Origin: Candidatus Nanoarchaeia archaeon
GTDB taxonomy: Archaea; Nanobdellota; Nanobdellia; Woesearchaeales; JANQNC01
Assembly (NCBI GenBank): GCA_028279745.1
Contig: JANQNC010000001.1
Coordinates: 914,154 to 978,153, forward strand
Length of the DNA: 64,000 bases
Direction of reading: 5' to 3'
The translations under genes were made by a program, and so were the position numbers. The stretch's first letter is position 1; each line of letters starts with the position of its first letter. Below the pieces are notes generated by a model that saw nothing but the letters and a program-made list of their open reading frames with translations, was not told the DNA's origin and did no database searches. Shown in pieces: positions 157-62,932 of the stretch.

Positions 157-1371
157 ATGAACATAAGTGTTTTTGGATTGGGTTATGTGGGGATAGTAAC
201 ATCTGCAATACTTTCAAAGAAGCATAAAGTTATAGGTGTAGATGTAAATCCGACAAAAGTCTCAATAATGAACCAAGGCAGATCACCTATAATTGAGGAA
301 GGGGTGAGCGAGCTAGTAAAAAAAGGGATAAAGTCTAAAAGGCTTAAAGCAACTTCTGATCCAAAATATGCTGTAATGAACACAGATGTTTCTGTGATTT
401 GTGTCGGGACACCTTCTGAAGAGTCGGGAGGACACGATCTCTCTTATCTTAATAATGTTATGGAAGAGATATCAGAGCTACTTAAGGAAAAGAAAAAGTA
501 TCATCTTATTGTAATAAGATCTACAGTAACTCCTGGGACTTCTCTTGAGATGAAAGAAAAGTATTTTCAGGGGATGAATGTTGGGTTATGTTTTAACCCA
601 GAGTTTTTGAGAGAAGGCGTCGCGGTTAAAGATTATATCAATCCTCCTTTCATAATTGTTGCATGCACAGACAAGAAAGCAGTTAAGCTTATGAAAGAAT
701 TTTATAAAGGGATTAAATCAGAGTTTATTGTTGCACCATTTCAGGAAGCAGAGACAGTAAAGATGTTGTGTAATGTGTTCCATGCATATAAGATTGTGTT
801 TGCGAATGAAGTGGGCAGGTTTTCGGAAGCATATGGTGTGAGTGGAAAAAGATTAATGAGCTTGTTGTGCAGAGATAAAAAGCTAAACATCTCAAGTAAG
901 TATCTTATACCTGGTTTTGCTTATGGGGGGAGTTGCCTACCAAAAGATCTAAGAAATTTACAGTATCTTGCAAGAAAGAAAGATCTAGATTTACCTGTAA
1001 TAAACAGCCTTGATATTTCAAATGAGAAACACATACACAACGCAATAAGAAAAATAGAGTCATTTGATGTGCGGAGTGTGGGTTTTGTAGGATTAAGCTT
1101 TAAACCAGGTACAGATGATTTGAGAGAAAGTCCGCAAGTTAGGTTGGTTGAATACTTTATCGGAAAAGGGTATGATGTTAAAATATTCGACAAAGATGTT
1201 TCACTTGCAAAACTGATGGGTGCAAACAAAGCATACATCGAGAAAGAAATACCTCACATAAGCTCGCTTCTTGTGGATAGATTGGATGAGTTAGATGAGT
1301 GTAAAACTATAGTTCTTAATAGGAATGTTAAAAAAGATTTTAGCAATAGGAATGTTGTTGATTTAAGATAA
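157..1371 (+). CDS. Nucleotide-sugar dehydrogenase (UDP-glucose/GDP-mannose 6-dehydrogenase family)
   Basis: N-terminal Rossmann motif VFGLGYVG, catalytic GFAYGGSCLPKD motif; ~400 aa typical of the family. Confidence 0.85.
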   Translation: MNISVFGLGYVGIVTSAILSKKHKVIGVDVNPTKVSIMNQGRSPIIEEGVSELVKKGIKSKRLKATSDPKYAVMNTDVSVICVGTPSEESGGHDLSYLNNVMEEISELLKEKKKYHLIVIRSTVTPGTSLEMKEKYFQGMNVGLCFNPEFLREGVAVKDYINPPFIIVACTDKKAVKLMKEFYKGIKSEFIVAPFQEAETVKMLCNVFHAYKIVFANEVGRFSEAYGVSGKRLMSLLCRDKKLNISSKYLIPGFAYGGSCLPKDLRNLQYLARKKDLDLPVINSLDISNEKHIHNAIRKIESFDVRSVGFVGLSFKPGTDDLRESPQVRLVEYFIGKGYDVKIFDKDVSLAKLMGANKAYIEKEIPHISSLLVDRLDELDECKTIVLNRNVKKDFSNRNVVDLR

Positions 1372-3091: not shown

Positions 3092-3657
3092 AAGCTCAAG
3101 ACGTGATAAAAAAGATCGCACCCGTTTTTTTAGTACTAGTAAGTATGTTTGTTATTTTTATAGTTTTAATTATGGCTCAAATGGGAATTTTTACTTGTGC
3201 ACCTGGAGAAGTTGGTGAGTGTAATCTGTTGGATGGAGAAAAAGGCATAAGGTTATGTTCTTCTTCGGGAAAACTAAGCAAATCCTGGAGTGTATGTTTA
3301 CCTTATGAATGCAACAGACTGGACGCCACAGAGAAGTGCGAATTGACTGAAGGATTAGTTGGAATAAAAAAGTGTGTTCCTCGGGGTGAAGTTGGCAAAG
3401 TTTGGAGTGAGTGCGTTTTACACGAATGCGAGTATGACGGTAAGATCTTAGAATGTGGTTTTTCTGACGGAAGTAAAGGAATCCAGAACTGTGTGAGTTT
3501 TAAAGGAATTGGCACTAAATTAAGTGAATGTATCCTGTATGAATGTGAATATGCTTTTCAGGAAAAAGCCTGTATTTTAAGTAGTGGCTTAGAAGGCAAA
3601 CAAATCTGCCAAAGCCATAGTGGTGGCTTGGGCAAAAAATGGAGTGAATGCCAGTAA
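3088..3657 (+). CDS. Membrane-anchored cysteine-rich repeat protein (4 x ~31-aa Cys4 repeats)
   Basis: N-terminal TM (VFLVLVSMFVIFIVLIMA) followed by four repeats of pattern C-x6-G-x3-C-x(10-12)-WSEC-x3-EC; start overlaps upstream stop. Confidence 0.55.
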   Translation: MKAQDVIKKIAPVFLVLVSMFVIFIVLIMAQMGIFTCAPGEVGECNLLDGEKGIRLCSSSGKLSKSWSVCLPYECNRLDATEKCELTEGLVGIKKCVPRGEVGKVWSECVLHECEYDGKILECGFSDGSKGIQNCVSFKGIGTKLSECILYECEYAFQEKACILSSGLEGKQICQSHSGGLGKKWSECQ

Positions 3658-3750
3658 CTCCACTAAATCTTTATAAATAAAATACTTGTTCTTTAATGTA
3701 TGAACCTGTAGCGCAGCCTGGCAACTGCCACTGTCAGTTGACACCAGGAG

Positions 3751-3780
3751 GCGACTCCTAGTGCTTCGCACCGGAGTCCC
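3751..3780 (+). repeat. 30-nt hairpin module copy 1 (inside D-loop intron of tRNA-Arg CCT)
   Basis: gcgactcctagtgcttcgcaccggagtccc; stem GCGACTCC/GGAGTCcc; repeated at 3901-3930 with 2 mismatches. Confidence 0.8.
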
Positions 3781-3900
3781 CTGGGAACACTTGATCGTGT
3801 AAGTTGGGCAAATAGCGCAATAGCCTCCTAAACTTAAGTTGAAGACAGCTATAGGTCGAGGGTTCGAAACAGCTGGTTACGCTCAGCTGGCACGCAAAAA

Positions 3901-3930
3901 GCGACTCCTAGTGTTACGCACCGGAGTCCC
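3901..3930 (+). repeat. 30-nt hairpin module copy 2 (inside T-loop intron of tRNA-Arg CCT)
   Basis: gcgactcctagtgttacgcaccggagtccc; both copies are also adjacent to a shared tgtcagtt/gttgac motif. Confidence 0.8.
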
Positions 3931-3987
3931 TTGTGATTTGTCAGTTAGTAACTGTTGACGAAAGTCCCTCCAGGTTCGTATTTTAAG

Positions 3988-8305: not shown

Positions 8306-9367
8306 ATGAAAGTACTACTCGGTGCCCTATCTTGGGGTTTAGGACATGCAACAAGAGACCTTCCAGTACTAAAAAAAATGATTGATGAAGGTCATGAAGT
8401 TACTGTTTTAAGCTATGGGCGATCTCTTGAATTACTAAAACATACTCTAAAAGATAGATGTGAATACAAAGAGTTGTTTGATTACCCTTTACCATATACT
8501 AAGTCAAATTTAATGCCTGGGAAAATAATGCTTTACTTTCCAAGAATTTTAAAGGCAATAAAAGATGAGCATAGAAAAGCACAAAAAATAATACATCAAG
8601 GAAACTTTGACAGAGTGATATCTGATGCAAGATATGGAGTTTATAGTTTAAAGAAACCTTCGTTCTTTATGACAAATCAAGTCAAATACATTTCTCCCGG
8701 AAGATTCTTTTTGGGAGAGTTAGCGACAGAATTTTTTAACCATAACTTTCACAAGAAGTTCAGTGCAGTTATTGTCCCAGATTATAGGGATAACTCTTTA
8801 AGCGGGGATTTAAGCCATAACTTGAAATTTCTTAAAGATAAAAGGATAGAATATGTGGGGATGTTAACAGATCTTCAGAAGAAGGAAGTCAAGCAAGACA
8901 TCGATCACTTTATCACTATATCAGGACCAGAACCACAAAGAACCTTATTTCAGGAAAAGATATTCAAGCAGATAGACCAGCTAAAAGGGAGAATTGTTGT
9001 GACGTGCGGGAAGCCTGAGTCAATTAATAAAGATCTATTGGGGGATGTTGAAGTCCATACACATCTGAAAAGAGAAGATCAAGAAGATTTTACCAACAGA
9101 AGCAAAATGGTGATAGCAAGATCAGGATACACAACAATGATGGAACTAGTTGCACTAGGAAAAAAAGCATTATTGGTTCCAACACCTGGGCAAACAGAAC
9201 AAGAGTACCTATCAAAATATCATAATAAGTTAGGAACCTTTTATTCGGTAAGCCAAAATAAATTCCAATTAGGAAGAGATGCAAAGATTGCAGAGAAATA
9301 TTCTGGATTTAACGAACAACACGATACAAAAAAATCTGTAGACAAATTTATGCAGATAATCTCTTAA
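8306..9367 (+). CDS. UDP-glycosyltransferase (MGT/GT1-GT28 superfamily)
   Basis: N-terminal GALSWGLGHATR motif typical of MGT/UGT-like GT-B enzymes. Confidence 0.55.
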   Translation: MKVLLGALSWGLGHATRDLPVLKKMIDEGHEVTVLSYGRSLELLKHTLKDRCEYKELFDYPLPYTKSNLMPGKIMLYFPRILKAIKDEHRKAQKIIHQGNFDRVISDARYGVYSLKKPSFFMTNQVKYISPGRFFLGELATEFFNHNFHKKFSAVIVPDYRDNSLSGDLSHNLKFLKDKRIEYVGMLTDLQKKEVKQDIDHFITISGPEPQRTLFQEKIFKQIDQLKGRIVVTCGKPESINKDLLGDVEVHTHLKREDQEDFTNRSKMVIARSGYTTMMELVALGKKALLVPTPGQTEQEYLSKYHNKLGTFYSVSQNKFQLGRDAKIAEKYSGFNEQHDTKKSVDKFMQIIS

Positions 9368-18552: not shown

Positions 18553-18624
18553 AGCGAGCGCCCGGACTTGAACCGGGGATCAGAGGGTTGCAGCCTCTTG
18601 CCTTAGCCGCTTGGCCACGCCCGC
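18553..18624 (-). tRNA. tRNA-Cys (anticodon GCA), intronless
   Basis: Manual fold of reverse complement: GCGGGCG-TG-GCC-AAGCGGCTAA-GGC-A-AGAGG-CTGCAAC-CCTCT-GATCC-CCGGG-TTCAAGT-CCCGG-CGCTCGC-T; U73 discriminator typical of tRNA-Cys. Confidence 0.85.
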
Positions 18625-18650
18625 ATAAGGGTTACACCCTTATCAACCTG
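18625..18650 (-). repeat. 26-nt hairpin direct repeat copy A immediately 5' of tRNA-Cys
   Basis: minus strand CAGGTTGATAAGGGTGTAACCCTTAT; stem ATAAGGG/CCCTTAT. Confidence 0.8.
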
Positions 18651-18728
18651 TAAGGGGTTTCGCTACGCTCAAGCCCCTGGGTACTGTTGGACTTGATGTG
18701 CTGTAGCACTTCAGTTGTGAAAATAAAA

Positions 18729-18869
18729 CGGACCTGGAGGGACTTTCGATGCATAAGCATATTCGAACCCTCGGTCTACAGCTCTCTGCGACGCCAGGCG
18801 CTGAGCCAGCGAATCTATGATTCTAGCGTGTAGAAGGCTGTCGCCCTATCCAGACTAGGCTACAGGTCC
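18729..18869 (-). tRNA. tRNA-Arg (anticodon TCT) with two introns (anticodon loop 47 nt; T-loop 59/60 19 nt)
   Basis: Manual fold of reverse complement: GGACCTG-TA-GCCT-AGTCTGGATA-GGGC-G-ACAGC-CTTCTA^[47 nt]^A-GCTGT-AGACC-GAGGG-TTCGAA^[19 nt]^T-CCCTC-CAGGTCC-G. Confidence 0.65.
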
Positions 18870-18967
18870 ATTGTAAATTGCAGAATCAGGACATTGTTTA
18901 TAAAAGTTATGTACTTTTACCTATATAAAGAAAAGGTCAGAGGGAGCTGACCTTTTCTAACTAGCAA

Positions 18968-23749: not shown

Positions 23750-26700
23750 GTGGTTATAATAGCGAATGGGGAGACAGGTGTTGTAAAAGGGTTGGAATTC
23801 TTCTTACCAAAATCCATAGATGACAAAAAAGTATCCGTCGTGGAAGTAGGTCCATTTGACGAAAACGCACAGGCAAAAGAGATAAACAAATTCTTAGGGA
23901 CAAGCATTGAATCATTATACAGAATTAATTCGTATATTATGGTTCATCCGCCAGAAATAACCAACATTGAAGACTTGCTTAGGGGAAAACCATTTGTAGA
24001 TCCAATAATGCATCAAGCGACACTAAATGAACCTCTGATTAGGAAGTTGGGTATTCCTTATGACTTTGTATTCCAAGATATGTTGAATCCAGGAACATCA
24101 GATGCAGAAGGCGACACAAAACTAAGACAGACATTACTTGCGTTAGGAAAGAAATTCGAAGAAGGTGATGTGGGATTCAGAGGAAGACAGTACTTCATGA
24201 AAGGAAAACTAGGGATAGATGAATCAGAAAACATATCCGCATTCTTAGCAAACCCTGATCTAAACCAAAGATTGGTAGTTCATAGAAATGAATACGAAAG
24301 AGGACAAAAAGTACAAGTTCCAGTTGTTACATTGCCACCAAAGATAGAGATACAAAAATATGATGTTCTTCGTATGAGTGATGATGAACTTCTTGAGTTG
24401 AGCAAGACAAGAAAATTGGCAGCAAGCTTAGAAGAGATGCAGCAATTCAGAGACATGTACAAAGACAAAGCATTTATCGAGAAAAGAAAAGAGAAAGGAC
24501 TGGATGAAAGAGCGACAGACGTAGAACTAGAAACATGGTTTGGTCTGAGAAGCGAGCATTGTTTCCATAAAGAGTTTAATGCACACATAACACTCGAAGA
24601 CAAAGTTAACGATCCAATATTCAAAAGAGCAGTAGAGAAAGGTTATCTGAAGAAAAATGATAAAGGAGAACTGATTTTAGATAAAGGGATCTTCAAAACA
24701 TTCATACAAGAACCAGCACAAAAAATATATGACAAACTAGAAAAAAGAGGAAAGAACTGGATTGTGGCTCCAATGTTCACAGACAATGCAGGCACAGTAC
24801 TTTATGATGAAAACTACATGTTCTGTATCAAATTCGAAACACATAACTCGCCATCAAATAAAGAACCTGTTCAAGGAGCAAAAACAGGAATAGATGGGGT
24901 TAACCGAGACATATTTGGAAACATGCGAGGAACATTCGATGCAATCGCAAACTTTTTCTTATACGGAACAGGGAATATTGATTATGAAGGATGGTTGCCA
25001 AAAGGAGTAAAGCATCCATACGTGATACTAAAAGGAGCAACACAGGGAGTAAGAGAGGGAGGAAACGAATCTCAAATAGCAACACTCGGTGGAAGCTCAG
25101 TATTCGATCCAAGAAACTCAGCAAAATGCAAAGTACACGCAGGAACTGTGGGATGGAGCCCAGTAAAATCACCAGACGGAATAAGCTACATAGGAAAAGT
25201 ACCAAACCTAGGAGATCTAGTGTTTGTAGTAGGACAACCTGTGGGTGTGGATGGAGTTCATGGAGCAACAGAAAGTTCACTTATTGCAGACGCAAATATA
25301 AGTTTGGGACACGTACAAGCAGATTACTCGTTTATACAAGCAAAAGCAAAAGGATACATTCTAGAAGTAGCAAGAGACAACTTATTATCATCAATAACTG
25401 ATTTCGGAGCGATGGGATTGGGATCTGCGTCACACGAGATGGCAGAAGCTACCGGCGGATTATTTATGGATTTAGCATTGCATCCTGTGAAGTACAAAGG
25501 AATACAACCCTGGCAAATCAATTGCTCAGAAACACAAGATAGAATGTTACTAGTGGCTAAGCCAGAAAATAAAGAAGAACTGTTTAACAGAGCAAAACTT
25601 CATGATGTTGACATAACCCAAATGGGAGATTTAACAGATTCAGGATATGTTCATTTAACACACGGAGAAGAAAGTGCAGCCTTCATAGACATAAAGAAAC
25701 TGTTCAACAAGGAACCAAGAAAAAAAATGCACGCAACCTGGTATGGTAATGGGGAAAAGGAAGCAGAAGAAATTAAAGGAGAATACTCACTAGAAGAAGC
25801 ACTATGTGATGTTATTGCAAGACCAGATATTGCATCAAAAGAATGGTTCTTCAGACAAAAAGACTCATCAGTAAAAGGTGCAACAATACAAGGGCCGCTA
25901 ATAGGAAAGAAACAAGAAGTAGAAGCAGACGCAACCATACAAAAACCATTAGATACAGAAGGGAAAGACTTTGGAGCAATAGCATATTCATTTGGAGTGA
26001 ATGAAAAACAATCAGACTTAGATGCATACTATTCAGCACAAAACTCATTCTTAGAGATGGTGGGAAAAGTGGTGGCGATTGGTGGAAAGTTGCCAGACAT
26101 GGATAAAGCAAAATGGGATGCGTGGGCAGTATGTGGTAATTATTGCCAGCCAAACTCAGAATCAAAGACAACACTAACAAAAGAAAGTGGAGAGCATAAC
26201 TTGGCTTCACTAGTAAGGGAAGCGATGGGAGTAAGAGAAGCAGAAGAAGCACTTAACATCCCAGTAATTTCTGGAAAAGACAGTATGAAATGCTCATGCA
26301 GATATGAAGTTGATGAGTCATTCAAACTAGAAGATGTACCTTTGGATTTAAGAAGACACATAACACTAGTTGAAAAAGATGGAAAAAGAGAGATTGAGAT
26401 ACATGATCCAGATAGTTATCTAGCAACATGCGCAGTAAAAATAGAAGATTACAGGAAATGTGTGAGTTCAAGCTTCAAACAAGAAGGCGATCTGATCTAT
26501 GTTTTAGGCATCACTGAAAAACAACTAGGAGCATCACAATATCATGAAGCGATGGGTTACAAAGAACAAGGAGCACCAATACAGGGTGGAGAAGTTCCAA
26601 AAGCAGACCTTGAAGAATTTATACAAGCAGGTAAAGCAGTTCATGCTGCAATAGACAACGAATTAGTTGCATCATGTAGTTACCTGCACAAAGGTGGGTT

Positions 26701-27031
26701 AGCAGTTTCAGCTGTAAAAGCAGCAATGGCAGGAGATTTAGGAATAGACATAAATGTAAACAGCGTGTGGAGTCCAGAAGATCTAGCAGATGAAGAATTA
26801 TTATTTTCAGAAACACAAGGAAGATACATGGTTACTGTAGCTAAAGAAGATCAAGATGCATTCGAAAGAACATTAAATGACGTAATTTACAGTAAAGTTG
26901 GAACTGTAACTTCAAATGGCATGACTGTACTGAAAGGGGATGGAAAGAAAGAATCAATTGACATTTCAAAAGTAAAAGAAAGCTATCAAAAAACACTAAG
27001 CTTTGGTTTAAATGATCTGGTGAAAAAATAA
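23750..27031 (+). CDS. purL: Phosphoribosylformylglycinamidine synthase PurL with long N-terminal extension (large-PurL-like N-domain), no C-terminal glutaminase domain
   Basis: 1093 aa; FGAM synthase AIR-synthase-like duplicated core (…HNSPSN…, GVDGVHGATESS, ISGKDSM); GTG start 23750 uncertain. Confidence 0.85.
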   Translation: MVIIANGETGVVKGLEFFLPKSIDDKKVSVVEVGPFDENAQAKEINKFLGTSIESLYRINSYIMVHPPEITNIEDLLRGKPFVDPIMHQATLNEPLIRKLGIPYDFVFQDMLNPGTSDAEGDTKLRQTLLALGKKFEEGDVGFRGRQYFMKGKLGIDESENISAFLANPDLNQRLVVHRNEYERGQKVQVPVVTLPPKIEIQKYDVLRMSDDELLELSKTRKLAASLEEMQQFRDMYKDKAFIEKRKEKGLDERATDVELETWFGLRSEHCFHKEFNAHITLEDKVNDPIFKRAVEKGYLKKNDKGELILDKGIFKTFIQEPAQKIYDKLEKRGKNWIVAPMFTDNAGTVLYDENYMFCIKFETHNSPSNKEPVQGAKTGIDGVNRDIFGNMRGTFDAIANFFLYGTGNIDYEGWLPKGVKHPYVILKGATQGVREGGNESQIATLGGSSVFDPRNSAKCKVHAGTVGWSPVKSPDGISYIGKVPNLGDLVFVVGQPVGVDGVHGATESSLIADANISLGHVQADYSFIQAKAKGYILEVARDNLLSSITDFGAMGLGSASHEMAEATGGLFMDLALHPVKYKGIQPWQINCSETQDRMLLVAKPENKEELFNRAKLHDVDITQMGDLTDSGYVHLTHGEESAAFIDIKKLFNKEPRKKMHATWYGNGEKEAEEIKGEYSLEEALCDVIARPDIASKEWFFRQKDSSVKGATIQGPLIGKKQEVEADATIQKPLDTEGKDFGAIAYSFGVNEKQSDLDAYYSAQNSFLEMVGKVVAIGGKLPDMDKAKWDAWAVCGNYCQPNSESKTTLTKESGEHNLASLVREAMGVREAEEALNIPVISGKDSMKCSCRYEVDESFKLEDVPLDLRRHITLVEKDGKREIEIHDPDSYLATCAVKIEDYRKCVSSSFKQEGDLIYVLGITEKQLGASQYHEAMGYKEQGAPIQGGEVPKADLEEFIQAGKAVHAAIDNELVASCSYLHKGGLAVSAVKAAMAGDLGIDINVNSVWSPEDLADEELLFSETQGRYMVTVAKEDQDAFERTLNDVIYSKVGTVTSNGMTVLKGDGKKESIDISKVKESYQKTLSFGLNDLVKK

Positions 27032-27879
27032 TGGTTAAAGCATACGTAATAAACGGACTTGGGATAGGGTGTGATGAAGAAGTGGCTCATGCATATGAAA
27101 AAGCAGGAGCAAAAGTAGAGATGGTACACTTTAGACAACTGTTATCTATGAGCAAAGACAAACTTTTCGAAGCACAAATCATAAACCTTGCAGGAGGATT
27201 CTTACACGGAGACTTTGGCGGAGCAGGAATGTATGCTGCGAATGAGTTGGAGCATTCAGGCATAAAGGATTTATTGATAGAGTTTGCAGATGAAGGAAAT
27301 GTAATATATGGTCAGTGCAACGGATTTCAATTTCTTGTAAAAACAGGGTTGCTTCCAGGGATTAACAGTGATTATTCTAAGCAAATACTTACATTAACAC
27401 ACAATGACTGTGGAAATTATAGGGTTGCACCTGTAATGCATAAAGCAGATCAAGCTCATTTTGCGTTTAAAGGAATTGATATGATCCAATTGTGGTGTAG
27501 ACATGCGGAAGGAAAAGGACAATTCAATTCAAAGTATGGGTCAGTATCTGAAGAAGAAGGAGAAAAAAACAGACAAGAAGTAAATAAAAACCATGTTATA
27601 TTGCGTTATGTCGATAATAATGGAGAGCCAACAGAAAAATTTCCTTTCTCTCCTAATGGGTCCATTGACGGAATTGCAGGTTTGGCAAATTTTAATGGTC
27701 ACATATTTGGAAACATGGCACACCCAGAAGTATCCATATATTCATCAAGAGATCCAGATTGGTTCGTTCAGAAAGACAGATTAAGAAGACAAGGAATAAA
27801 AGCGAAAGATCTGGAAGGAGAGATTATGGAAGGACAAGGACTGAAGATCTTTAGAAATATAGTCAATTATGTTAAATAA
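27031..27879 (+). CDS. purQ: FGAM synthase glutamine amidotransferase subunit PurQ-like
   Basis: GQCNGFQFL nucleophile motif and NMAHPE motif resembling glutaminase domain of large PurL; start overlaps purL stop. Confidence 0.75.
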   Translation: MVKAYVINGLGIGCDEEVAHAYEKAGAKVEMVHFRQLLSMSKDKLFEAQIINLAGGFLHGDFGGAGMYAANELEHSGIKDLLIEFADEGNVIYGQCNGFQFLVKTGLLPGINSDYSKQILTLTHNDCGNYRVAPVMHKADQAHFAFKGIDMIQLWCRHAEGKGQFNSKYGSVSEEEGEKNRQEVNKNHVILRYVDNNGEPTEKFPFSPNGSIDGIAGLANFNGHIFGNMAHPEVSIYSSRDPDWFVQKDRLRRQGIKAKDLEGEIMEGQGLKIFRNIVNYVK

Positions 27880-27932
27880 ACAACCGAGGCAGCAGAAATT
27901 AAAAATTTCTGGGCCTCGAAAGCCGAGGTGGA
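27880..27932 (+). promoter_or_regulatory. Two adjacent hairpins between purQ and purH (candidate terminator/attenuator)
   Basis: cagaaatt-aaa-aatttctg followed by cctcg-aaagc-cgagg directly upstream of the purH ATG (27936). Confidence 0.35.
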
Positions 27933-27935
27933 AAA

Positions 27936-28748
27936 ATGTCAATAAGACAAGTAGAAGGATTGCAAAGAAACAAAATACCAGTACAGAACGTTCTAATAAG
28001 TGTTTTTTACAAAGACGGACTAGAAGATATGGTAAAGGGATTGATAGATGTAAACCCTGATGTATTATTTATGTCAACAGGCGGAACATACAATGGAATG
28101 AAGGAAATGCTGGGGAGTGATGCAGATAAACATCTGATAGCTGTAGATGAATACACAGAATTCCCTGAAATGGATGGAGGTTTGGTGAAAACTTTACACC
28201 CAAAGATACATGCAGGATTATTGGGAGAGAGAAACAACCCAAAACACCAAGAATACATAAAAAACTTATCAAAAACAATCAAGTTCTTAGATGATGGTGT
28301 CGAAAGAGTGTTTGATGCGGAATTAGGAAAACAATACAGAGTTGAAGTAGTAGAAGGAGTAACAGGAGTCTATATCGATTTGATGATAGGAAATCTTTAC
28401 CCATTCGAACAAGTAATTAAAAAAATAGAATCTGGAGAGATAAATCCAAAAACGAAAGAACCTTACAACTACGAGGATGCAAGAGGATTTAAAGATATAG
28501 GTGGACCGGGCATGACAAGAGCGGCGGCAAAGAACTTCCTGAGCTGTGCAGTAATATGCGACCCAGCAGACTATAACATAGCAGACACTTTAGTTGATGG
28601 ATGCACAACATTCGAACAAAGGTTCGCACTTCAGCAGAAAGTATGGGAGATGTCCTGGAAATATGACAAGAAAATAAGTGATTTCGAAAATCAACAGGAC
28701 GTTGCAAAAGTCAAAGCACTTTATGAATTCGAGAAGGAGGGTGAATGA
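27936..28748 (+). CDS. purH: PurH N-terminal half: IMP cyclohydrolase (MGS-like domain) plus linker
   Basis: MGS-like domain motifs LFMSTGGT, LVKTLHPKIHAGLL, NLYPF, DIGGPGMTRAAAKNF; C-terminal FEQRFALQQKVWE matches PurH inter-domain linker. Confidence 0.8.
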   Translation: MSIRQVEGLQRNKIPVQNVLISVFYKDGLEDMVKGLIDVNPDVLFMSTGGTYNGMKEMLGSDADKHLIAVDEYTEFPEMDGGLVKTLHPKIHAGLLGERNNPKHQEYIKNLSKTIKFLDDGVERVFDAELGKQYRVEVVEGVTGVYIDLMIGNLYPFEQVIKKIESGEINPKTKEPYNYEDARGFKDIGGPGMTRAAAKNFLSCAVICDPADYNIADTLVDGCTTFEQRFALQQKVWEMSWKYDKKISDFENQQDVAKVKALYEFEKEGE

Positions 28749-28749
28749 A

Positions 28750-30078
28750 ATGACACAAGATATCAAACATAAACCAGTTATGGATCTGAAAGGTGGAGAA
28801 AATAGTCATCTGAAAGCAAGGTTAAGAGCGGCAGTTGATGAAAAAGAAGAGCCATTGAAGAAGATTTTATATTCTGAAGTCTATGACCGAGGAGCAAAAG
28901 TAAGAAAACCAGGATGGACGAACATAGGAGACTTCAGTGCGTGCATGAGAACCATAACCGCACTAGATACAGTATACAAAAATTCTGAAACGCCACATAT
29001 AGCAGTTGCATCAAAACACACAAGACCTGTAGTATTAGCAAACGGAAAAACACAACTAGAAGCAGTAGTAAAAGCAATTGCAGGAGACTTAAACTCGCCA
29101 TTCGGAGGGGTTTGGGCATTAAACACACCACTAGAACAAGAAACAGCAGAGTTCATAGACAGAATGTTTATAGAGGGGGTTATTGCGCCAGAGTATGAAA
29201 AAGGAACAGCAGAATTACTAAAAGATACAAGTAAAGTAAAAATGCATCAAAACAGATTCCTACTAGAAGTTGGGTACTTAAAACCAGAAGACCTTGATGT
29301 CATAGTTGGGAAGAGTTTAACACCTGTTGCATTTGGGTGTTACATAGAGCAAGACAGAGAACCATTATTCGATGCACTAAAAGAATGTACAGTAGTAACT
29401 GGAAATGATGGAAATTCAGACATAAACTCATTAGATAGTCAGCTGATAAATGATATTAACTTTGCAGGAAATGTTGCAAGTTACCTATCCTCAAATCTGA
29501 TATTCTACGTGCATAACGGAGCGATAGCAGGATTAGGAGATGGATGCGGGGCAAGAACAGTCGCAGCAGAAAAAGCAAGAACCATGCTAGAAAAATCGGC
29601 ATACGCAGCAATAAGTGCAGACAAGGAGGTTAAGGATTATGTGTGGGATGCAGTACTTTACGACACTCCATTCACAAGAGAAGACTTTGATATAATACAA
29701 ACACCAATAGAACTAACTGCATTCTCAGATGCATTCTTCCCCAAACTAGATGGCTTTGTAGAAACATCTGGGGTGGATAGAATCAAAGAAGAATTCGGAG
29801 CAAGAGAAGTGGTTTATACAGAGAAAAAGAAAGGAAAAGAATATGATGTGACATTCATACCAAAGAAAAACAACTTCGATCCAGACTACAACCAAAGTTT
29901 GATACCAAAAGTTGTAATACAGCCCGGTGGAAGTATGGCTGATAAGCTAGTAAGGCCAATGGCTGAAAATTATGGAATTAAGATGGTATTCACAATGCCT
30001 CCAGAAGTTGGAGAAAAATATTTAGCGGGAGAGAAAGCAACAGGAAGAAGATTCTTTGGACATAACATAATGTCCTAG
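28750..30078 (+). CDS. purH: PurH C-terminal half: AICAR transformylase domain
   Basis: Starts 1 nt after the IMPCH ORF stop, different frame, own GGAGG RBS; LKGGENSH (cf. YGENPHQ), ASKHTRPV (cf. KHTNPCG), C-terminal GGSMAD…MVFT…RRFFGH (cf. GGSIRD…MVFTG.RHFRH). Confidence 0.75.
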   Translation: MTQDIKHKPVMDLKGGENSHLKARLRAAVDEKEEPLKKILYSEVYDRGAKVRKPGWTNIGDFSACMRTITALDTVYKNSETPHIAVASKHTRPVVLANGKTQLEAVVKAIAGDLNSPFGGVWALNTPLEQETAEFIDRMFIEGVIAPEYEKGTAELLKDTSKVKMHQNRFLLEVGYLKPEDLDVIVGKSLTPVAFGCYIEQDREPLFDALKECTVVTGNDGNSDINSLDSQLINDINFAGNVASYLSSNLIFYVHNGAIAGLGDGCGARTVAAEKARTMLEKSAYAAISADKEVKDYVWDAVLYDTPFTREDFDIIQTPIELTAFSDAFFPKLDGFVETSGVDRIKEEFGAREVVYTEKKKGKEYDVTFIPKKNNFDPDYNQSLIPKVVIQPGGSMADKLVRPMAENYGIKMVFTMPPEVGEKYLAGEKATGRRFFGHNIMS

Positions 30079-30090
30079 GAGGTTAAAAAA

Positions 30091-31386
30091 ATGGCAAAAG
30101 TACTAGTTATAGGATCAGGTGGGAGAGAACACGCATTAGGTTGGAAAATAGCACAAAGCGAAGAAGTTGAGGAAGTGCTTTATGCACCTGGAAATCCAGG
30201 GATGTTAGAAGGAAAATGTAAAGTTGTCCCAGTTGACGGATCAAAGATAGAGAATGCGGATGCAATATCAAACTTAATCGAACAGGAAAATATAGATTTA
30301 ACAGTTGTAGGGCCCGAAGCTCCACTGGCTGCAGGGTTAGTTAACACGCTGAATAACAGAGGGCATAATCGTGTTTTTGGACCAACAAAACAAGCATCAT
30401 TGCTAGAGTCTGACAAATTTTATTCATACGACATCATGAAAGAGATAGGAATACCTCAAGCAAACTCAATGAAATGTTTCTCAACACAAGATGCGGTAAA
30501 CGCAATAAAAATAATGTCAGAAACTGAAGGTGTTGTGATTAAAGCAAGAGGATTGACAGGAGGAAAAGGAGTAACAGTGTGTGATTCAAAAGAAGAAGCG
30601 CTTACAGAGATATCAAACCATGCTGAAAACTATGGATCACATGTGCTAATAGCAGAAAGATTATTCGGACAAGAATTTTCAGTATTTGGAATTTCAGATG
30701 GAGAACAAGTATCACCTCTAGAAATCTCAATACAGGATCATAAACCATTATTAGATGGAGACAAAGGACCGAACACAGGAGGGATGGGGGCTTACGGACC
30801 AGCACCAGTTGCATCAGCAGAAGTAGTAAAGAAAGTGGCTGATGATATAATGACTCCAGTAGTGCAAGAGATGAAGAAAAAAGGCACACCCTACAAAGGA
30901 TTCCTATATGGTGGAATGATCATGACAGAAAAAGGTCCAAAAGTAATCGAGTTCAACATAAGATTCGGAGATCCAGAATGCCAGCCAGGAATGATGATGG
31001 TAGAAAGTGACATGTACAAAGCACTATCATATGCAGTTGATGGAAAACTTAACGAAGTTGACTTTAAGTTCAAACCCGGAGCAGCATGTTGTGTTGTGCT
31101 AGCATCACAAGGATACCCTGGAAGTTATGAAAAAGGACTGCTGATAAAAGGAATAGAAGAAGCAGAACAAATCTCTGCAGTAAAAGTATTCCACGCAGGA
31201 ACAAGAGAAGTAGAAAACGGAGATGGAAGATTTGTAACAGCTGGAGGAAGAGTTCTTGGAGTTACAGGATATTCACCAGCAGGAATTTCGGAAGCACAAA
31301 AAGTGGCTTACAACGCAGTATCAAAAATAAGCATTCCAGGCGGATGGGCTTATAGACAAGACATAGCGGATAAAGCTCTGAAGTAA
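30091..31386 (+). CDS. purD: Phosphoribosylamine-glycine ligase
   Basis: MAKVLVIGSGGREHALGWK and ATP-grasp body; 431 aa. Confidence 0.95.
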   Translation: MAKVLVIGSGGREHALGWKIAQSEEVEEVLYAPGNPGMLEGKCKVVPVDGSKIENADAISNLIEQENIDLTVVGPEAPLAAGLVNTLNNRGHNRVFGPTKQASLLESDKFYSYDIMKEIGIPQANSMKCFSTQDAVNAIKIMSETEGVVIKARGLTGGKGVTVCDSKEEALTEISNHAENYGSHVLIAERLFGQEFSVFGISDGEQVSPLEISIQDHKPLLDGDKGPNTGGMGAYGPAPVASAEVVKKVADDIMTPVVQEMKKKGTPYKGFLYGGMIMTEKGPKVIEFNIRFGDPECQPGMMMVESDMYKALSYAVDGKLNEVDFKFKPGAACCVVLASQGYPGSYEKGLLIKGIEEAEQISAVKVFHAGTREVENGDGRFVTAGGRVLGVTGYSPAGISEAQKVAYNAVSKISIPGGWAYRQDIADKALK

Positions 31387-31388
31387 AA

Positions 31389-32213
31389 ATGGACTACACA
31401 CCAATATACTCAGGAAATCCAAAAGAATTCAGTTGGGTGGGATTTGGATCTGGAAGCGGGACAAATTTAGCAGCATGTGCTAAAGTTATCAAACCAGTGA
31501 TGGTTTTTTCTGATAAACCATCTGCGAAACTTTTCAAACTAGAAGAGTTAGCAGGTGTTGAACAAAAAACAATAGATGGTTTTGGGTATTGTGGGGGTTG
31601 GCAAGCAGCAAAAGGCAATCCAGTAAAAGAAGAGCAATACAAAGAAAGAAGCGTAAAATATAACGAGCTGATTCTAGAGACCTTAAAAGAGTTTGAAGAG
31701 GCACAAGGCAAACCGATAGACCTGATAGTTCTTGGCGGATATATGAGACTAGTTGGTGATTGTATACTTGAAGCATACAAAGACAAAATAATAAACGTGC
31801 ACCCGGCAGATCTTTCTATCCTGAACGAGAAGAACGAAAGAGTGTTTATCGGTGGAGATGCAGTTTATGACGCGATAAAAGCAGGACAAGAACAAACAAG
31901 ATCGTCAGTAATAATGGTAGATTCAGGAATGGATCATGGAGAAATAATTACAATGGGTCCTGAGGTAAGAACGTGGGAAGAATACACTAACGGAACAAAA
32001 GCAGAAAAAGAAGAATGCTTGAGAGAATATGCAGATGGACACCAAAGCTTACAAAAAATAAGGAGTGATCATCCAGCATTAACAACGGCAGTGGACCTTA
32101 TTGCACAGAACAAATTAGCATTAGGCAAAGAAAAAACATTCCATAACGAATGGAGAACCGTATACTTCGGTGGGAGACCGCTTGATTATAAAGGACTTGA
32201 GTTAGGGAGGTAA
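31389..32213 (+). CDS. purN: Phosphoribosylglycinamide formyltransferase
   Basis: formyl_trans_N motifs INVHPADLSILNE; N-terminal ~60 aa extension. Confidence 0.8.
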   Translation: MDYTPIYSGNPKEFSWVGFGSGSGTNLAACAKVIKPVMVFSDKPSAKLFKLEELAGVEQKTIDGFGYCGGWQAAKGNPVKEEQYKERSVKYNELILETLKEFEEAQGKPIDLIVLGGYMRLVGDCILEAYKDKIINVHPADLSILNEKNERVFIGGDAVYDAIKAGQEQTRSSVIMVDSGMDHGEIITMGPEVRTWEEYTNGTKAEKEECLREYADGHQSLQKIRSDHPALTTAVDLIAQNKLALGKEKTFHNEWRTVYFGGRPLDYKGLELGR

Positions 32214-32219
32214 TTGAAA

Positions 32220-33386
32220 ATGGGAAAAGATACAGCAGATTACGAAGAAAGTGAAGAGATTGCGATAGCATCAGGGAAAAAAGCATTAGAAAGAGCGCCT
32301 TGGTTATTCAACAGAGTGAATCCAAAAACAAAAGGATTCTTTGTAGAACTAAGAGATAATCAAATAATACACCCAAACTATTCCTCTGTACATTGTGTTG
32401 ATGGAAACGGAACAAAACTATTTCTTAGTGCGTGGTCAGATAATTATAGAAAAGCAATGACTGATGGAATTGCAATGAATGCAAATGACATGGCAACAAT
32501 AATAAATGCAAAACCAAGCGAGTTGGAACTTTATATTGCATGTCAGCAAGGAGTTGAAGTAAATTATATGGGTCAGATAATGGATGGTTTAGTTGATGCG
32601 GTAGAAAGGATAAGAATACCAAATGCTCCGTGGGACATGAATATAGGAAAGATGGAAACTGCATCGGTGGATGAAATGATCTCGCTAGGAGTAAAAAATA
32701 AAGGGGTTGACTTTGGGATAGTGATGGTTGGTTACATAGCAAAAGATGAGATACCAAACTTAAATCCAAAACCAGGACAACCGATTGTTGGAGTAAGTTC
32801 AACTGGGCTGCACAGTAACGGGTTTACTGGAGCAAGACATGTACTTTTCATATATGACCCAGCGCTAGAATATAGGGAAGAATGGAAGGGACAATACCGT
32901 GGTAGATTCAAGCCAGATGACAAACCAGACATCCTTGAAGGAAAAACAGTGATGGAAGCATTGCAAGAACCAACTGCTCTTTACATGAAAGAAGCAGCAT
33001 TAGTGGGGCAAAGCTTCGACACAAAGGAGATATATGGTGTGAACATAACGGGGAATGGTTTGATGAATTTCAATAGAGTTGGAGAAGGAGTGTCATTCGA
33101 AATAACAGACCCGATAGAAATGCTTCCAATACACAAATTATTAGCACAAGAATCAGGATGGGATCCTGAAACATCCTACAAAAAACAAAACAATGGGATG
33201 GGTTTTGCTTATATTGCGCCTGATATGGAAACAGCAGAAGGAATTGTTAAGTTAGTGAACGAGGCGGGTGAAAATAGAGCAAAGATTGTTGGAGAAGTCA
33301 GAGACAACAAAGACAAAGAGATAAAAACAACAATCCACAAGCCATACGAAGGAGAACCGATAACCTTTACAGGTTATAACGGTTAA
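32220..33386 (+). CDS. purM: Phosphoribosylformylglycinamidine cyclo-ligase (AIR synthase), long form
   Basis: VDGNGTK and GVSSTGLHSNGF motifs of PurM; ATG 32220 preferred over in-frame TTG 32214. Confidence 0.8.
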   Translation: MGKDTADYEESEEIAIASGKKALERAPWLFNRVNPKTKGFFVELRDNQIIHPNYSSVHCVDGNGTKLFLSAWSDNYRKAMTDGIAMNANDMATIINAKPSELELYIACQQGVEVNYMGQIMDGLVDAVERIRIPNAPWDMNIGKMETASVDEMISLGVKNKGVDFGIVMVGYIAKDEIPNLNPKPGQPIVGVSSTGLHSNGFTGARHVLFIYDPALEYREEWKGQYRGRFKPDDKPDILEGKTVMEALQEPTALYMKEAALVGQSFDTKEIYGVNITGNGLMNFNRVGEGVSFEITDPIEMLPIHKLLAQESGWDPETSYKKQNNGMGFAYIAPDMETAEGIVKLVNEAGENRAKIVGEVRDNKDKEIKTTIHKPYEGEPITFTGYNG

Positions 33387-57000: not shown

Positions 57001-57577
57001 CTGCTTCACCAAGCTTGGTCTCAACTTTTTCCAGCTCTTTCAGCGCTTTATTTTTCTTTTCTTCATAAACACCAATACCTGCGATCTCTTCAACGATCAT
57101 CCTCTTATCAACAGAAGACATATCAACAAATTTGACAATATCTCCCTGAAGAATTATGTTATGGCCCTCAGGATCAACTTTAGCTAAAGCCATCATGTCA
57201 AGAATTTGCTGTCTAGTTCTGGTTTGGTTATTAATCTTATATTTTGACTGGCCGTTTGGTCTAACAATTCTAGTGATCTTAACTTCAGGGTCTTCAACAG
57301 GGAAAAGTTTAGTTGCGTTATCAAAGAAAATGCTAACTTCAGCTTCTTTAGCGCCCCTTTTAGACTTGCCTCCATTATATACAAGGTTACCAGACTTTTC
57401 AGCTCTCATAGCTTTGCTTGAAGACCTTCCCAACACAAATGTAAGTGCATCTAGAATGTTGCTTTTACCGCTGCCGTTAGGGCCCAAAACAACATTAAAA
57501 TTGTCGCCAAAAACAAGTTCGGTATGGTTGGCAAAAGACTTAAACCCCTTCAAAACAAGTCTATTTATCTTAGTCAT
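54074..57577 (-). CDS. smc: Chromosome segregation protein SMC
   Basis: N-terminal Walker A GPNGSGKSN, long coiled coils, hinge, C-terminal LSGGEKT signature and Walker B ILDEVDAALD; 1167 aa. Confidence 0.95.
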   Translation of the reverse strand: MTKINRLVLKGFKSFANHTELVFGDNFNVVLGPNGSGKSNILDALTFVLGRSSSKAMRAEKSGNLVYNGGKSKRGAKEAEVSIFFDNATKLFPVEDPEVKITRIVRPNGQSKYKINNQTRTRQQILDMMALAKVDPEGHNIILQGDIVKFVDMSSVDKRMIVEEIAGIGVYEEKKNKALKELEKVETKLGEADIVLSERATYLKELKKDRDEALEFKSLKGTLEKYKASYLSKQIAQKEKVKEEQEARLKKHNDNITELREKIEETKSGIDERDSGIKEINNEIEEKGEVEQVKLNKEMERLRIEVATNKTKIESDKNEIEKVKERKKQLDESIAEVDEKISRLEAEKEGLVKDKTDSESSLNQIENSIEQFKKKHKISEDTENIEKDIEDIDKQSEDLQKKIHELREKQQELLREKDKTEFMIGSFDEKIDEVAAIEKENKQQIGELKDKRLRFKTVASELSTALNEDSSLASQIANSRIKLAKSNDELAKLKARNISIREKVQGGTAINEIIDMGKKDKGIFGTVSDLGQVNKKYALALEVAAGGRIRSLVVEDDLIAKKCIEHLKKNRLGIATFLPLNKVRTRLIDADVYDLRKKQGVHGFAIDLVKFDDKFKNIFSHVFSNTLVVDNLETARKIGIGTTRMVTLEGDLVEMSGAMIGGYRQRSKGIGFKEEEVLKDMQEYEEVVENLTNVVQTLEKRRVENDETLTKLRQEKSELEGSILSLENKLNIKQGEDVLDFKKTKTDLTNKIKEIDTEVDKVQDDISDTNKELTQGKIKKQELRNKINELRNPTVIAELNAFEDKRSELKEKIIHLTADVKNFDVQINNMLKSEKESIVKILKQHTKEIESFEEEINKLTEENTTKTEDLIAKEKFAKEFYSKFKALFTKRQKLEEEIRKFEDKKAGFDFRIREIEQKVNNVNIDKAKVSAELAGLAKEFEPYAKIDFSDVKKTEEELRKDINKLEYKLENSSNVNLRALEIYDKVEEEYNKLLEKKDKLAEEKENVLVLMNEIETKKKDIFMKTFDEINGKFQDIFSSLSKKGQAFLELENPETVFDGGVSFKVKLSTNKFMDIKSLSGGEKTITALAFIFAVQEYEPASFYILDEVDAALDKSNAEKLAGLVKQYCDKAQYIIISHNDAVISSADILYGISMNEHGISKITSLKV

Positions 57578-62434: not shown

Positions 62435-62932
62435 TTAATCTTTTGGCCATATACCAAATCTTCCTTCATGAAATTCCTCTTCATTTCTGATACCTTCAAT
62501 TTCATCTAAAGAAGGTTTTAGAGAACCTTTTGGTGCATCAAGAGGATCTTTATATGCAAAATCTTTTGGTTTATGATAGTTCTGTTCGATTATATCTTCA
62601 AATCGAACAACTCCTTTATCTCTTAAATTTATTTCACCTTCGTTATGAAGCTTTTTTAGGTGTTCCCAAATTCCGTCTTGTGTGTAAAAAGCATATGGTG
62701 TTTTACTTAATCCTAATTTCTTAGAATTGTATACGTGATCTTTTAACATTCTTCTTACACTACCTGAATGAAAATCTGTTAACCATAAATACATCCACCG
62801 AGTTTCTTTAGCAGTGTATACATTTTTTCCAAGTTTAGCAGATACTCTTTCCCTTATCTCTTCTGGAACTACTGAGCTCATTTTCTTTCCCCCCCCTATC
62901 AGTCTGATTATGAAAAGTGTCCCCCTATACAA
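62435..62932 (-). CDS. Hypothetical protein
   Basis: ORF only. Confidence 0.4.
   Translation of the reverse strand: MYRGTLFIIRLIGGGKKMSSVVPEEIRERVSAKLGKNVYTAKETRWMYLWLTDFHSGSVRRMLKDHVYNSKKLGLSKTPYAFYTQDGIWEHLKKLHNEGEINLRDKGVVRFEDIIEQNYHKPKDFAYKDPLDAPKGSLKPSLDEIEGIRNEEEFHEGRFGIWPKD

Follow-up and report, generated by a model that had tools for sequence, protein, structure and literature searches.

The window analysed here, a 64 kb stretch of DNA considered at its full length, contains at positions 18729–18869 of the minus strand a well supported two-intron gene for tRNA-Arg(UCU), the mature ends of which are G1 at 18869 and the discriminator base G73 at 18729. Read from 18869 to 18729, the locus divides into five consecutive segments, GGACCTGTAGCCTAGTCTGGATAGGGCGACAGCCTTCTA / CACGC...GCAGAG / AGCTGTAGACCGAGGGTTCGAA / TATGCTTATGCATCGAAAG / TCCCTCCAGGTCCG, corresponding to three exons separated by two introns. 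Exon 1 (18831–18869, 39 nt, delimited by in silico splicing and ARAGORN) comprises the 5′ strand of the acceptor stem, the D arm with its loop AGUCUGGAUA, the 5′ strand of the anticodon stem and the anticodon loop through A37. It is followed by a 47 nt intron at the canonical position 37/38 (intron 1, 18784–18830), which is associated with a relaxed bulge–helix–bulge (BHB) motif. Exon 2 (18762–18783, 22 nt, assigned by ARAGORN after splicing) supplies A38, the 3′ strand of the anticodon stem, the variable loop AGACC, the T-stem strand GAGGG and the T-loop from U54 to A59, and this 22-mer was found to be identical in four metagenome Arg tRNA genes. The second intron, UAUGCUUAUGCAUCGAAAG (18743–18761, 19 nt, located by a BHB scan and by folding), interrupts the T-loop at position 59/60, and exon 3 (18729–18742, 14 nt, again from ARAGORN after splicing) completes the molecule with U60, the 3′ strand of the T stem (CCCUC), the 3′ strand of the acceptor stem (CAGGUCC) and the discriminator G73. 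The gene does not encode the terminal CCA.

The unprocessed sequence of 18729–18869 escaped both ARAGORN and Rfam, the sole call in the whole window being a tRNA-Cys, beyond which an Rfam scan of the window at gathering thresholds and at permissive E-values returned no further tRNA fragments. Once both inserts (47 and 19 nt) had been cut out, ARAGORN reported a perfect 75 nt tRNA-Arg(tct), and excision of the 19 nt insert alone gave the same tRNA-Arg with a 47 nt anticodon-loop intron; detection of the gene by this program requires removal of the short 59/60 intron. All helices of the spliced cloverleaf are intact, save for one G–U pair. A second tRNA-Arg in the window, with anticodon TCT and with introns at 37/38 and 59/60, had been proposed from inspection of the sequence, and ARAGORN after splicing showed this original prediction to be exact in its coordinates, lengths and intron positions.

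The extent to which such a result could arise by chance was assessed by excising each of the 31,789 BHB-shaped candidates present on both strands of the window and rerunning ARAGORN. From these trial excisions a single genuinely new tRNA emerged, at the Arg(TCT) locus. BHB motifs of comparable strength number 93 in the window, compared with 55–70 in shuffled sequences, and since this geometry is so common by chance, the significance of the locus lies in the restored cloverleaf.

Intron structures and predicted splicing

The BHB scan classes the motif at the 59/60 intron as a strict hBHBh′, with 4/4 pairs in the central helix H, 5 bp in the outer helix h and 4 bp in the inner helix h′. The outer helix is the T stem itself (GAGGG/CCCUC). 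The central helix (UUCG/CGAA, 4 bp) pairs U54-U55-C56-G57 with intron bases 14–17 and lies between two 3 nt bulges, one made up of A58, A59 and the intronic U that follows the exon border, and the other of an intronic A and G followed across the border by U60, while the inner helix (AUGC/GCAU) is capped by a UUAU closing loop. In this region the unconstrained minimum free energy (MFE) structure deviates only in the choice of the A that pairs with intron U13, one A–U pair being slid, and the complete precursor with its four cloverleaf helices enforced folds at −54.9 kcal/mol, compared with −55.5 kcal/mol for the MFE structure. Formation of a BHB at 59/60 was one of the points on which the original prediction had chosen to stand or fall, and both the scan and the folds bear it out.

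At 37/38 the BHB is no more than a relaxed one. Its central helix (CUUC/GCAG) has 3/4 pairs, with a mismatch between U34 and C, and one extra C between h′ and H places the 5′ splice site in a 3×1 loop; if enforced, this conformer is about 7 kcal/mol worse than an extended helix. The same relaxed layout, with a mismatch at position 34 and one extra nucleotide, is found in the 16 nt 37/38 intron of the second Arg gene of the window (anticodon CCT), and a one-nucleotide offset also occurs in 7/28 of the Woesearchaeota/Nanoarchaeota 59/60 introns among the matches listed in the scan described below. The relaxed architecture thus looks more like a habit of the lineage than like decay. The poor BHB at 37/38 implies that an endonuclease of broad specificity is needed. 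A Pfam search detected no EndA or RtcB domain among 40 ORFs scanned in the 64 kb window, which is part of a contig of 1.30 Mb, and these splicing enzymes of the host are assumed in what follows.

Transcription would start from a putative TATA promoter about 30 nt upstream of the gene. In the resulting pre-tRNA the CGAA at the 3′ end of the 19 nt intron would pair with U54–G57 of the T-loop, creating a canonical BHB atop the T stem, and the 47 nt intron would adopt a looser, bulge–helix–loop-like motif atop the anticodon stem. EndA, the splicing endonuclease of archaea, would then cut the two 3 nt bulges of each motif, and an RtcB-type ligase would join the three exons and probably circularize the introns. 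The tertiary fold between the T-loop and the D-loop would become possible only after exon joining. We infer that the transcript of 18729–18869 is spliced in this manner and yields a mature tRNA-Arg(UCU).

Expression signals and conservation

The exons have a G+C content of 58.7%, compared with 35.7% for the window. A TATA-like box, TTTTATAAA, lies at 18897–18905 on the minus strand, 28–36 nt upstream of the mature 5′ end; the corresponding box starts at −32 to −35 in 8/9 of the other Arg(TCT) orthologues that were collected, and at about −32 in the CCT gene of the window. Directly 3′ of the discriminator base is an oligo-T tract, TTTTATTTT (18720–18728, minus strand), which is a likely archaeal terminator. 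An intron-less gene for tRNA-Cys(GCA) follows on the same strand (18553–18624), 104 nt downstream of Arg(TCT), and the same Arg(TCT)–Cys gene pair recurs at four other loci (L089, L111, L119 and L126). The Arg(TCT) exons are 93–94% identical to those of orthologues in other genomes, the introns of which cannot be aligned with those of the window gene, and an intron-less gene at a further locus (L125), differing at four positions, scores 65.6 bits against the Rfam tRNA model RF00005. With the cloverleaf, the exon conservation, the TATA box and the synteny all intact, nothing points to a pseudogene, the other possibility that had been raised when the gene was first proposed.

The 104 nt spacer between the two tRNA genes (18625–18728, minus strand) has itself a high G+C content, and its predicted fold consists of two hairpins (−29.8 kcal/mol, z = −2.6). 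A TATA box for tRNA-Cys is not obvious in it, and none of the fetched loci yielded a similar sequence; a similarity to L127 noticed by eye was not recovered by blastn, and the idea of a conserved spacer element was set aside.

The tRNA-Arg(CCU) paralogue

The second Arg gene of the window, for tRNA-Arg(CCU), lies on the plus strand at 3702–3978 and carries three introns, upon the removal of which ARAGORN recognizes a perfect 75 nt tRNA-Arg(cct). In silico splicing places its exons at 3702–3721, 3812–3830, 3847–3868 and 3965–3978, separated by a 90 nt D-loop intron at 19/20 (3722–3811), a 16 nt intron at 37/38 (3831–3846) and a 96 nt intron at 59/60 (3869–3964). The mature Arg(TCT) and Arg(CCT) sequences agree at 63/75 positions (84%) and their differences are largely compensatory, which upholds the earlier view that the two genes are paralogous.

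End-to-end alignments of the 96 nt T-loop intron were obtained with two D-loop introns, that of its own gene (57/90 identities) and that of the Arg(CCT) orthologue in L110 (minus strand, ~3463–3646; 62/88). Local alignment scores between the T-loop and D-loop introns are 56–61, compared with 13.5±2.3 for shuffled sequences, none of which (0/500) scored as well. The 3′ end, ...GGGCAA in the version that pairs with the D-loop, is refitted to ...GACGAAAG, which pairs with the T-loop, and in L110 the two strands of the central hairpin have changed in a compensatory manner, from GACTCC/GGAGTC to GGCTCC/GGAGCC. A weaker relative lies in L111, within the intron that occupies the D-loop of an Arg(TCT) gene. 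Judged from these alignments, the 96 nt T-loop intron is the D-loop intron of the CCT gene copied at full length and refitted to its new site. The T-loop intron had previously been suggested to have expanded later to 96 nt. Its size is indeed derived, the 59/60 introns of the CCT orthologues being short (17 nt in L110 and 34 nt in L044), but the sequence came from the copied D-loop intron, with no stretching of a shorter one.

The hairpin repeated in the two long CCT introns has BHB-like flanks (3899–3937, with h of 8 and H of 4/4; 3743–3790, with H of 3/4). A nested arrangement, with an intron inside an intron, was considered and rejected, as motifs of this kind arise readily by chance (37 in the window compared with ~22 in shuffles) and the two occupy different registers of the intron alignment; they are treated as by-products of the long hairpin. 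An origin of the hairpin element from a mobile element or virus was likewise dropped after no match was obtained in viral_contigs.

The 16 nt intron at 37/38 ends in GAAG/AC, and its GAAG is a perfect complement of the UCU-type loop CUUC, although mismatched with the CUCC of its own gene. This fit, which hinges on one nucleotide, may be the trace of a switch from U34 to C34 that followed gain of the intron. The intron-less gene in L125 (minus strand, 1905–1979) has a CCT anticodon on a body that differs at only four positions from the TCT tRNA of the window, which suggests that, in this lineage, anticodons may have been switched between the bodies of the two Arg isoacceptors.

The shared T-loop junction

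In both Arg genes the T-loop intron starts immediately after TTCGAA and ends in CGAAAG before a T, as had been noted earlier and as sequence comparison confirms; the two loci read GAGGGTTCGAA, an intron terminating in CGAAAG, and TCCCTCCAGGT. Within the window CGAAAGTCCCTC occurs exactly twice, compared with an expectation of 0.12. The CGAA common to both introns follows from the need to pair with U54–G57 of the T-loop in the 4 bp central helix. Beyond this motif and the terminal AG the two introns have no similarity to offer: the 19 and 96 nt sequences give a local score of 12, compared with 10.5±2.1 for shuffles, 142/500 of which scored as well.

Further introns at this site were sought in a genome-wide scan with the pattern GAGGGTTCRAA-N(9-39)-YGAANN-TCCCTC, in which YGAA is required by the pattern itself. 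At least 120 loci were retrieved, almost all of them archaeal among the matches listed, from Woesearchaeota, Micrarchaeota, Aenigmarchaeota, Nanohaloarchaeota and Asgard archaea as well as from Methanomassiliicoccales, contigs labelled Methanosarcinales, Bathyarchaeota and Thaumarchaeota. With the 59/60 insert removed, 90 of the 122 matches listed gave tRNA calls, which are spread over about 20 isotypes and include Arg with anticodons TCT, CCT and TCG. Among the matches listed, AG ends 20/28 of the 59/60 introns from Woesearchaeota/Nanoarchaeota regardless of isotype (Pro, Lys, Cys, Ser, Thr, Gly, Tyr and Arg), and the last two bases are AA or AT in Micrarchaeota, CA or TA in Methanomassiliicoccales and AT, AA or AC in Asgard archaea.

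The shared ...CGAAAG/U junction would then stem from the pairing requirement acting together with a preference of the lineage at large for a 3′ bulge containing AG. On the best reading, RNA-structure constraints are likely to explain the identity of the junctions, which supplies no evidence of one inherited ancestral intron. The original prediction had drawn the opposite conclusion, namely that the intron is older than the divergence of the anticodons, and this part of it is not supported by the sequences: the CGAA is forced, the AG is lineage-wide, the introns themselves lack similarity and three TCT orthologues are devoid of a 59/60 intron. Intron position alone, and especially identity at the 59/60 junction, is not readable as common descent.

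Intron occupancy among orthologues

Orthologues were gathered in two ways that differ in what their frequencies mean, the scan with exon 2 giving an unbiased sample and the 59/60 pattern, which requires an intron at this site, giving one in which the frequency is skewed upward. Among the Arg(TCT) genes from the exon-2 scan, one (L126) has introns in the D-loop and at 37/38 and two (L127 and L128) have an intron at 30/31; the 59/60 intron is absent in 3/3 of these TCT orthologues and in the single gene with a CCT anticodon (1/1, L125). The 59/60-biased scan returned at least five TCT orthologues and at least two CCT orthologues (L044 and L110) with an intron at this site. In the TCT genes it occurs alone (L089), with a 30/31 intron (L076), with a D-loop intron (L111 and L042) or with introns both in the D-loop and at 37/38 (L119), and the intron sequences of these genes are mutually unrelated. 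The 30/31 intron of L127, L128 and L076, 20–21 nt long, interrupts the anticodon stem at a position that is not used in the genes of the window.

A base rate for 59/60 introns was taken from about a dozen tRNAs met incidentally on the pattern-scan contigs, of which ~5 have such an intron and ~7–8 do not, i.e. roughly a third. At this rate, the occurrence of one in 2/2 Arg genes is unremarkable. In addition, the TCT body is nearer to its foreign orthologues (93–94%) than to its own CCT paralogue (84%), which indicates that the anticodon split predates the species; with a split of this age, an ancestral 59/60 intron would need several independent losses. The distribution is best read as reflecting frequent gain, loss and movement of introns, with 59/60 as a hot spot.

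In L127 (~934–1140, plus strand), 108 nt downstream of the Arg(TCT) gene, a second copy of its 3′ exon, TCCCTTCAGGCCCA, is present. This may represent a duplication resembling an attachment site, or else an intermediate stage in the disruption of a gene.

Relationships with introns of other tRNAs

The 47 nt 37/38 intron of the TCT gene resembles, almost end to end, the 49 nt D-loop intron of a tRNA-Gly(CCC) gene on a Woesearchaeota-like contig (L003, minus strand, ~8440–8596). The alignment scores 39, compared with 11.7±2.3 for shuffles (0/2000 as good), and the two introns have in common the core CGCTAGAATC-NN-AGATTCGCTGG, only the exon-binding tetranucleotide being altered (GCAG versus CCAT). 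The D-loop intron of L003 was placed by hand from its BHB, brute-force excision with ARAGORN being too permissive; the same Gly gene also has a 30 nt 59/60 intron that ends in GAAAG. As far as can be judged by sequence comparison, the TCT 37/38 intron and the Gly D-loop intron are homologous. For the 19 nt T-loop intron, an exact match (13/13) to its 13 free nucleotides (TATGCTTATGCAT) lies within the 59/60 intron of a tRNA-Leu(TAA) gene with several introns (L009, 340–352; E = 0.09 in about 1 Mb) from a MAG that bears the submitter's label Methanosarcinales. This match is suggestive of a relationship between the two introns.

Similar introns at different sites or in different tRNAs, by which intron transposition is recognized, are thus encountered in two cases, between TCT intron 1 and the Gly intron of L003 and between the T-loop and D-loop introns of the CCT gene. 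The introns of this lineage are best regarded as having probably been gained, lost and copied between sites. Position 59/60 could be favoured in this process because the T-loop is nearly universal, so that an intron ending in CGAA would form the central helix in any tRNA. Whether Woesearchaeota-like DPANN archaea harbour actively mobile families of BHB tRNA introns, for which 59/60 is a universal docking site by way of CGAA, is in our estimation an evenly balanced question. If they do, the window offers snapshots of the process, with a D-loop-to-T-loop copy in the CCT gene and, in the TCT gene, a Gly-related anticodon-loop intron together with a Leu-related minimal intron of 19 nt; intron transposition, documented so far in Thermoproteales, would extend to DPANN archaea, and pairs of donor and copy would be available for work on its mechanism. 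Copying of introns between sites is relevant to the spread of tRNA introns in archaea, the manner of which is an open question, and the known mechanism of BHB splicing is unchanged by these findings.

Alternative explanations

Common descent of the two T-loop introns, with a 59/60 intron present in the ancestor of the TCT and CCT genes that is short in the former and was expanded to 96 nt in the latter, is unlikely. It would account for the same intron position in two genes with mature bodies that are 84% identical, and it draws on the recurrence of 59/60 introns in Arg(TCT) genes (L089, L076, L111, L119 and L042), in Arg(CCT) genes (L044 and L110) and also in Arg(TCG) genes of related lineages; the 17 and 34 nt introns of the CCT orthologues make the 96 nt state a derived one, and the fit of the CCT 37/38 end GAAG to CUUC hints at a change from U34 to C34 after an intron was in place. 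The junction on which it chiefly leans is, however, either forced (CGAA) or lineage-wide (AG in 20/28 of the matches listed), no residual similarity is left between the two T-loop introns, and the 96 nt intron is better explained by the D-loop intron copy. Occupancy tells against it as well, as the three close TCT orthologues of the unbiased scan have no 59/60 intron, several independent losses would be called for by a TCT body that is 93–94% identical to those of other genomes and 84% identical to CCT, and 59/60 introns occur in some 20 other isotypes among the matches listed. Frequent intron turnover, with a junction shaped by structural constraint, is the reading retained here.

A decaying or non-functional gene, the inserts of which would be mere insertions or scars and the 37/38 motif of which would be too poor for splicing, is very improbable. 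The relaxed and thermodynamically disfavoured 37/38 BHB, the invisibility of the gene to standard tRNA finders and the lack of an endonuclease among 40 scanned ORFs of the window would fit this description, but the helices of the spliced cloverleaf are all intact save for the G–U pair, the exons are 93–94% conserved across genomes in which the introns have fully diverged, and a putative promoter and terminator are present. The CCT 37/38 intron is equally relaxed, 7/28 of the 59/60 introns of the lineage among the matches listed have a one-nucleotide offset, and enzymes of the DPANN type cleave relaxed motifs (PMC3239211, PMC5829648). Finally, two freely chosen deletions carry many degrees of freedom, and with BHB-shaped motifs so frequent at random they might be thought to produce a tRNA-like sequence by accident. 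A single genuinely new tRNA from 31,789 trial excisions, close orthologues in many genomes, an intron-less copy among them, and the conservation of the upstream promoter and of the synteny with tRNA-Cys effectively refute such a chance resemblance. A functional tRNA-Arg(UCU) gene of a Woesearchaeota/Nanoarchaeota-like DPANN archaeon, the transcript of which would carry two protein-spliced introns and the 59/60 junction of which would reflect a hot spot under structural constraint, is accordingly the preferred interpretation, with a probability of about 0.82.

Comparison with known systems

The layout of the two-intron Arg(TCT) gene is already known in archaea, to which the locus adds one member. 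Its closest parallel is the pre-tRNA-Cys(GCA) of ARMAN-2 (Ca. Micrarchaeum), the 59/60 intron of which is cleaved in vitro by the EndA of the same organism (Fujishima et al., 2011; PMC3239211); in ARMAN-2, pre-tRNA-Pro(GGG) has introns at 53/54 and 59/60 (PMC3239211). The Cys and Arg(TCT) genes have in common a DPANN host and a 59/60 T-loop intron with a BHB on the T stem, whereas the Cys intron is a relaxed hBH and that of Arg(TCT) a strict hBHBh′, and the window gene further differs in its Woesearchaeota-like rather than Micrarchaeota host, in its isotype and in its second intron at 37/38.

Multiple-intron tRNA genes with up to three introns (Sugahara, 2008; PMC4033280) and intron transposition (Fujishima, 2010, summarized in PMC4090602 and PMC4033280) are described for Thermoproteales. 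As in the window genes, up to three introns occur there at canonical and noncanonical sites, similar introns are found at different positions or in different tRNAs and each junction forms a BHB or a relaxed BHB. On the other hand, the host of the window genes is a DPANN archaeon and not a member of the Crenarchaeota, its genome is AT-rich and it is probably no hyperthermophile, and the CCT gene houses donor and copied intron together.

Kaneta et al. (2018; PMC5829648) describe an EndA with an L3 loop and increased disruption of tRNA genes in lineages of DPANN, a Woesearchaeote among them, and point out that the incomplete tRNA sets of DPANN genomes call for manual curation. The Arg(TCT) gene is exactly such a disrupted case, and the sections of PMC5829648 consulted gave no description of the Arg(TCT) gene, of the intron families or of the 59/60 AG signature. 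With this gene omitted, the genome would seem to be without a decoder of AGA, standard finders having missed it. Position 59/60 is also the joint of the permuted tRNAs of Thermofilum pendens (PMC3218864). The T. pendens cases and those of a eukaryotic alga involve the three regions that are also used in the CCT gene, with 59/60 as a recurrent processing site, but one of the hosts is a eukaryote and the T. pendens genes are permuted and not intron-containing; these cases are analogous and unrelated to the genes of the window.

Host and further features of the window

The genes that flank the tRNA locus are archaeal, encoding GatD, a Cdc48-type AAA ATPase, PCNA and RNase J. The homologues of RNase J are named Woesearchaeota or Nanoarchaeota by their source, the best non-self match being only 64% identical, and the contigs of the closest homologues (L001–L004) do not retain the tRNA neighbourhood.

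Elsewhere in the window, C/D-box snoRNA families gave weak matches at 57055–57202 and 62462–62546, both on the minus strand (26.3 and 24.3 bits, E of about 1–3). These scores are below the gathering thresholds and are probably due to chance, although archaeal C/D sRNAs are conceivable.

A run of purine-biosynthesis genes extends over ~27031–33386 on the plus strand, encoding a PurQ-like GATase, AICARFT/IMPCHase, GAR synthetase, a formyltransferase and an AIR-synthase-like protein, and is adjoined by an ORF of 1093 amino acids (23750–27031). DPANN genomes are usually described as biosynthetically reduced, which makes this run of purine genes notable.
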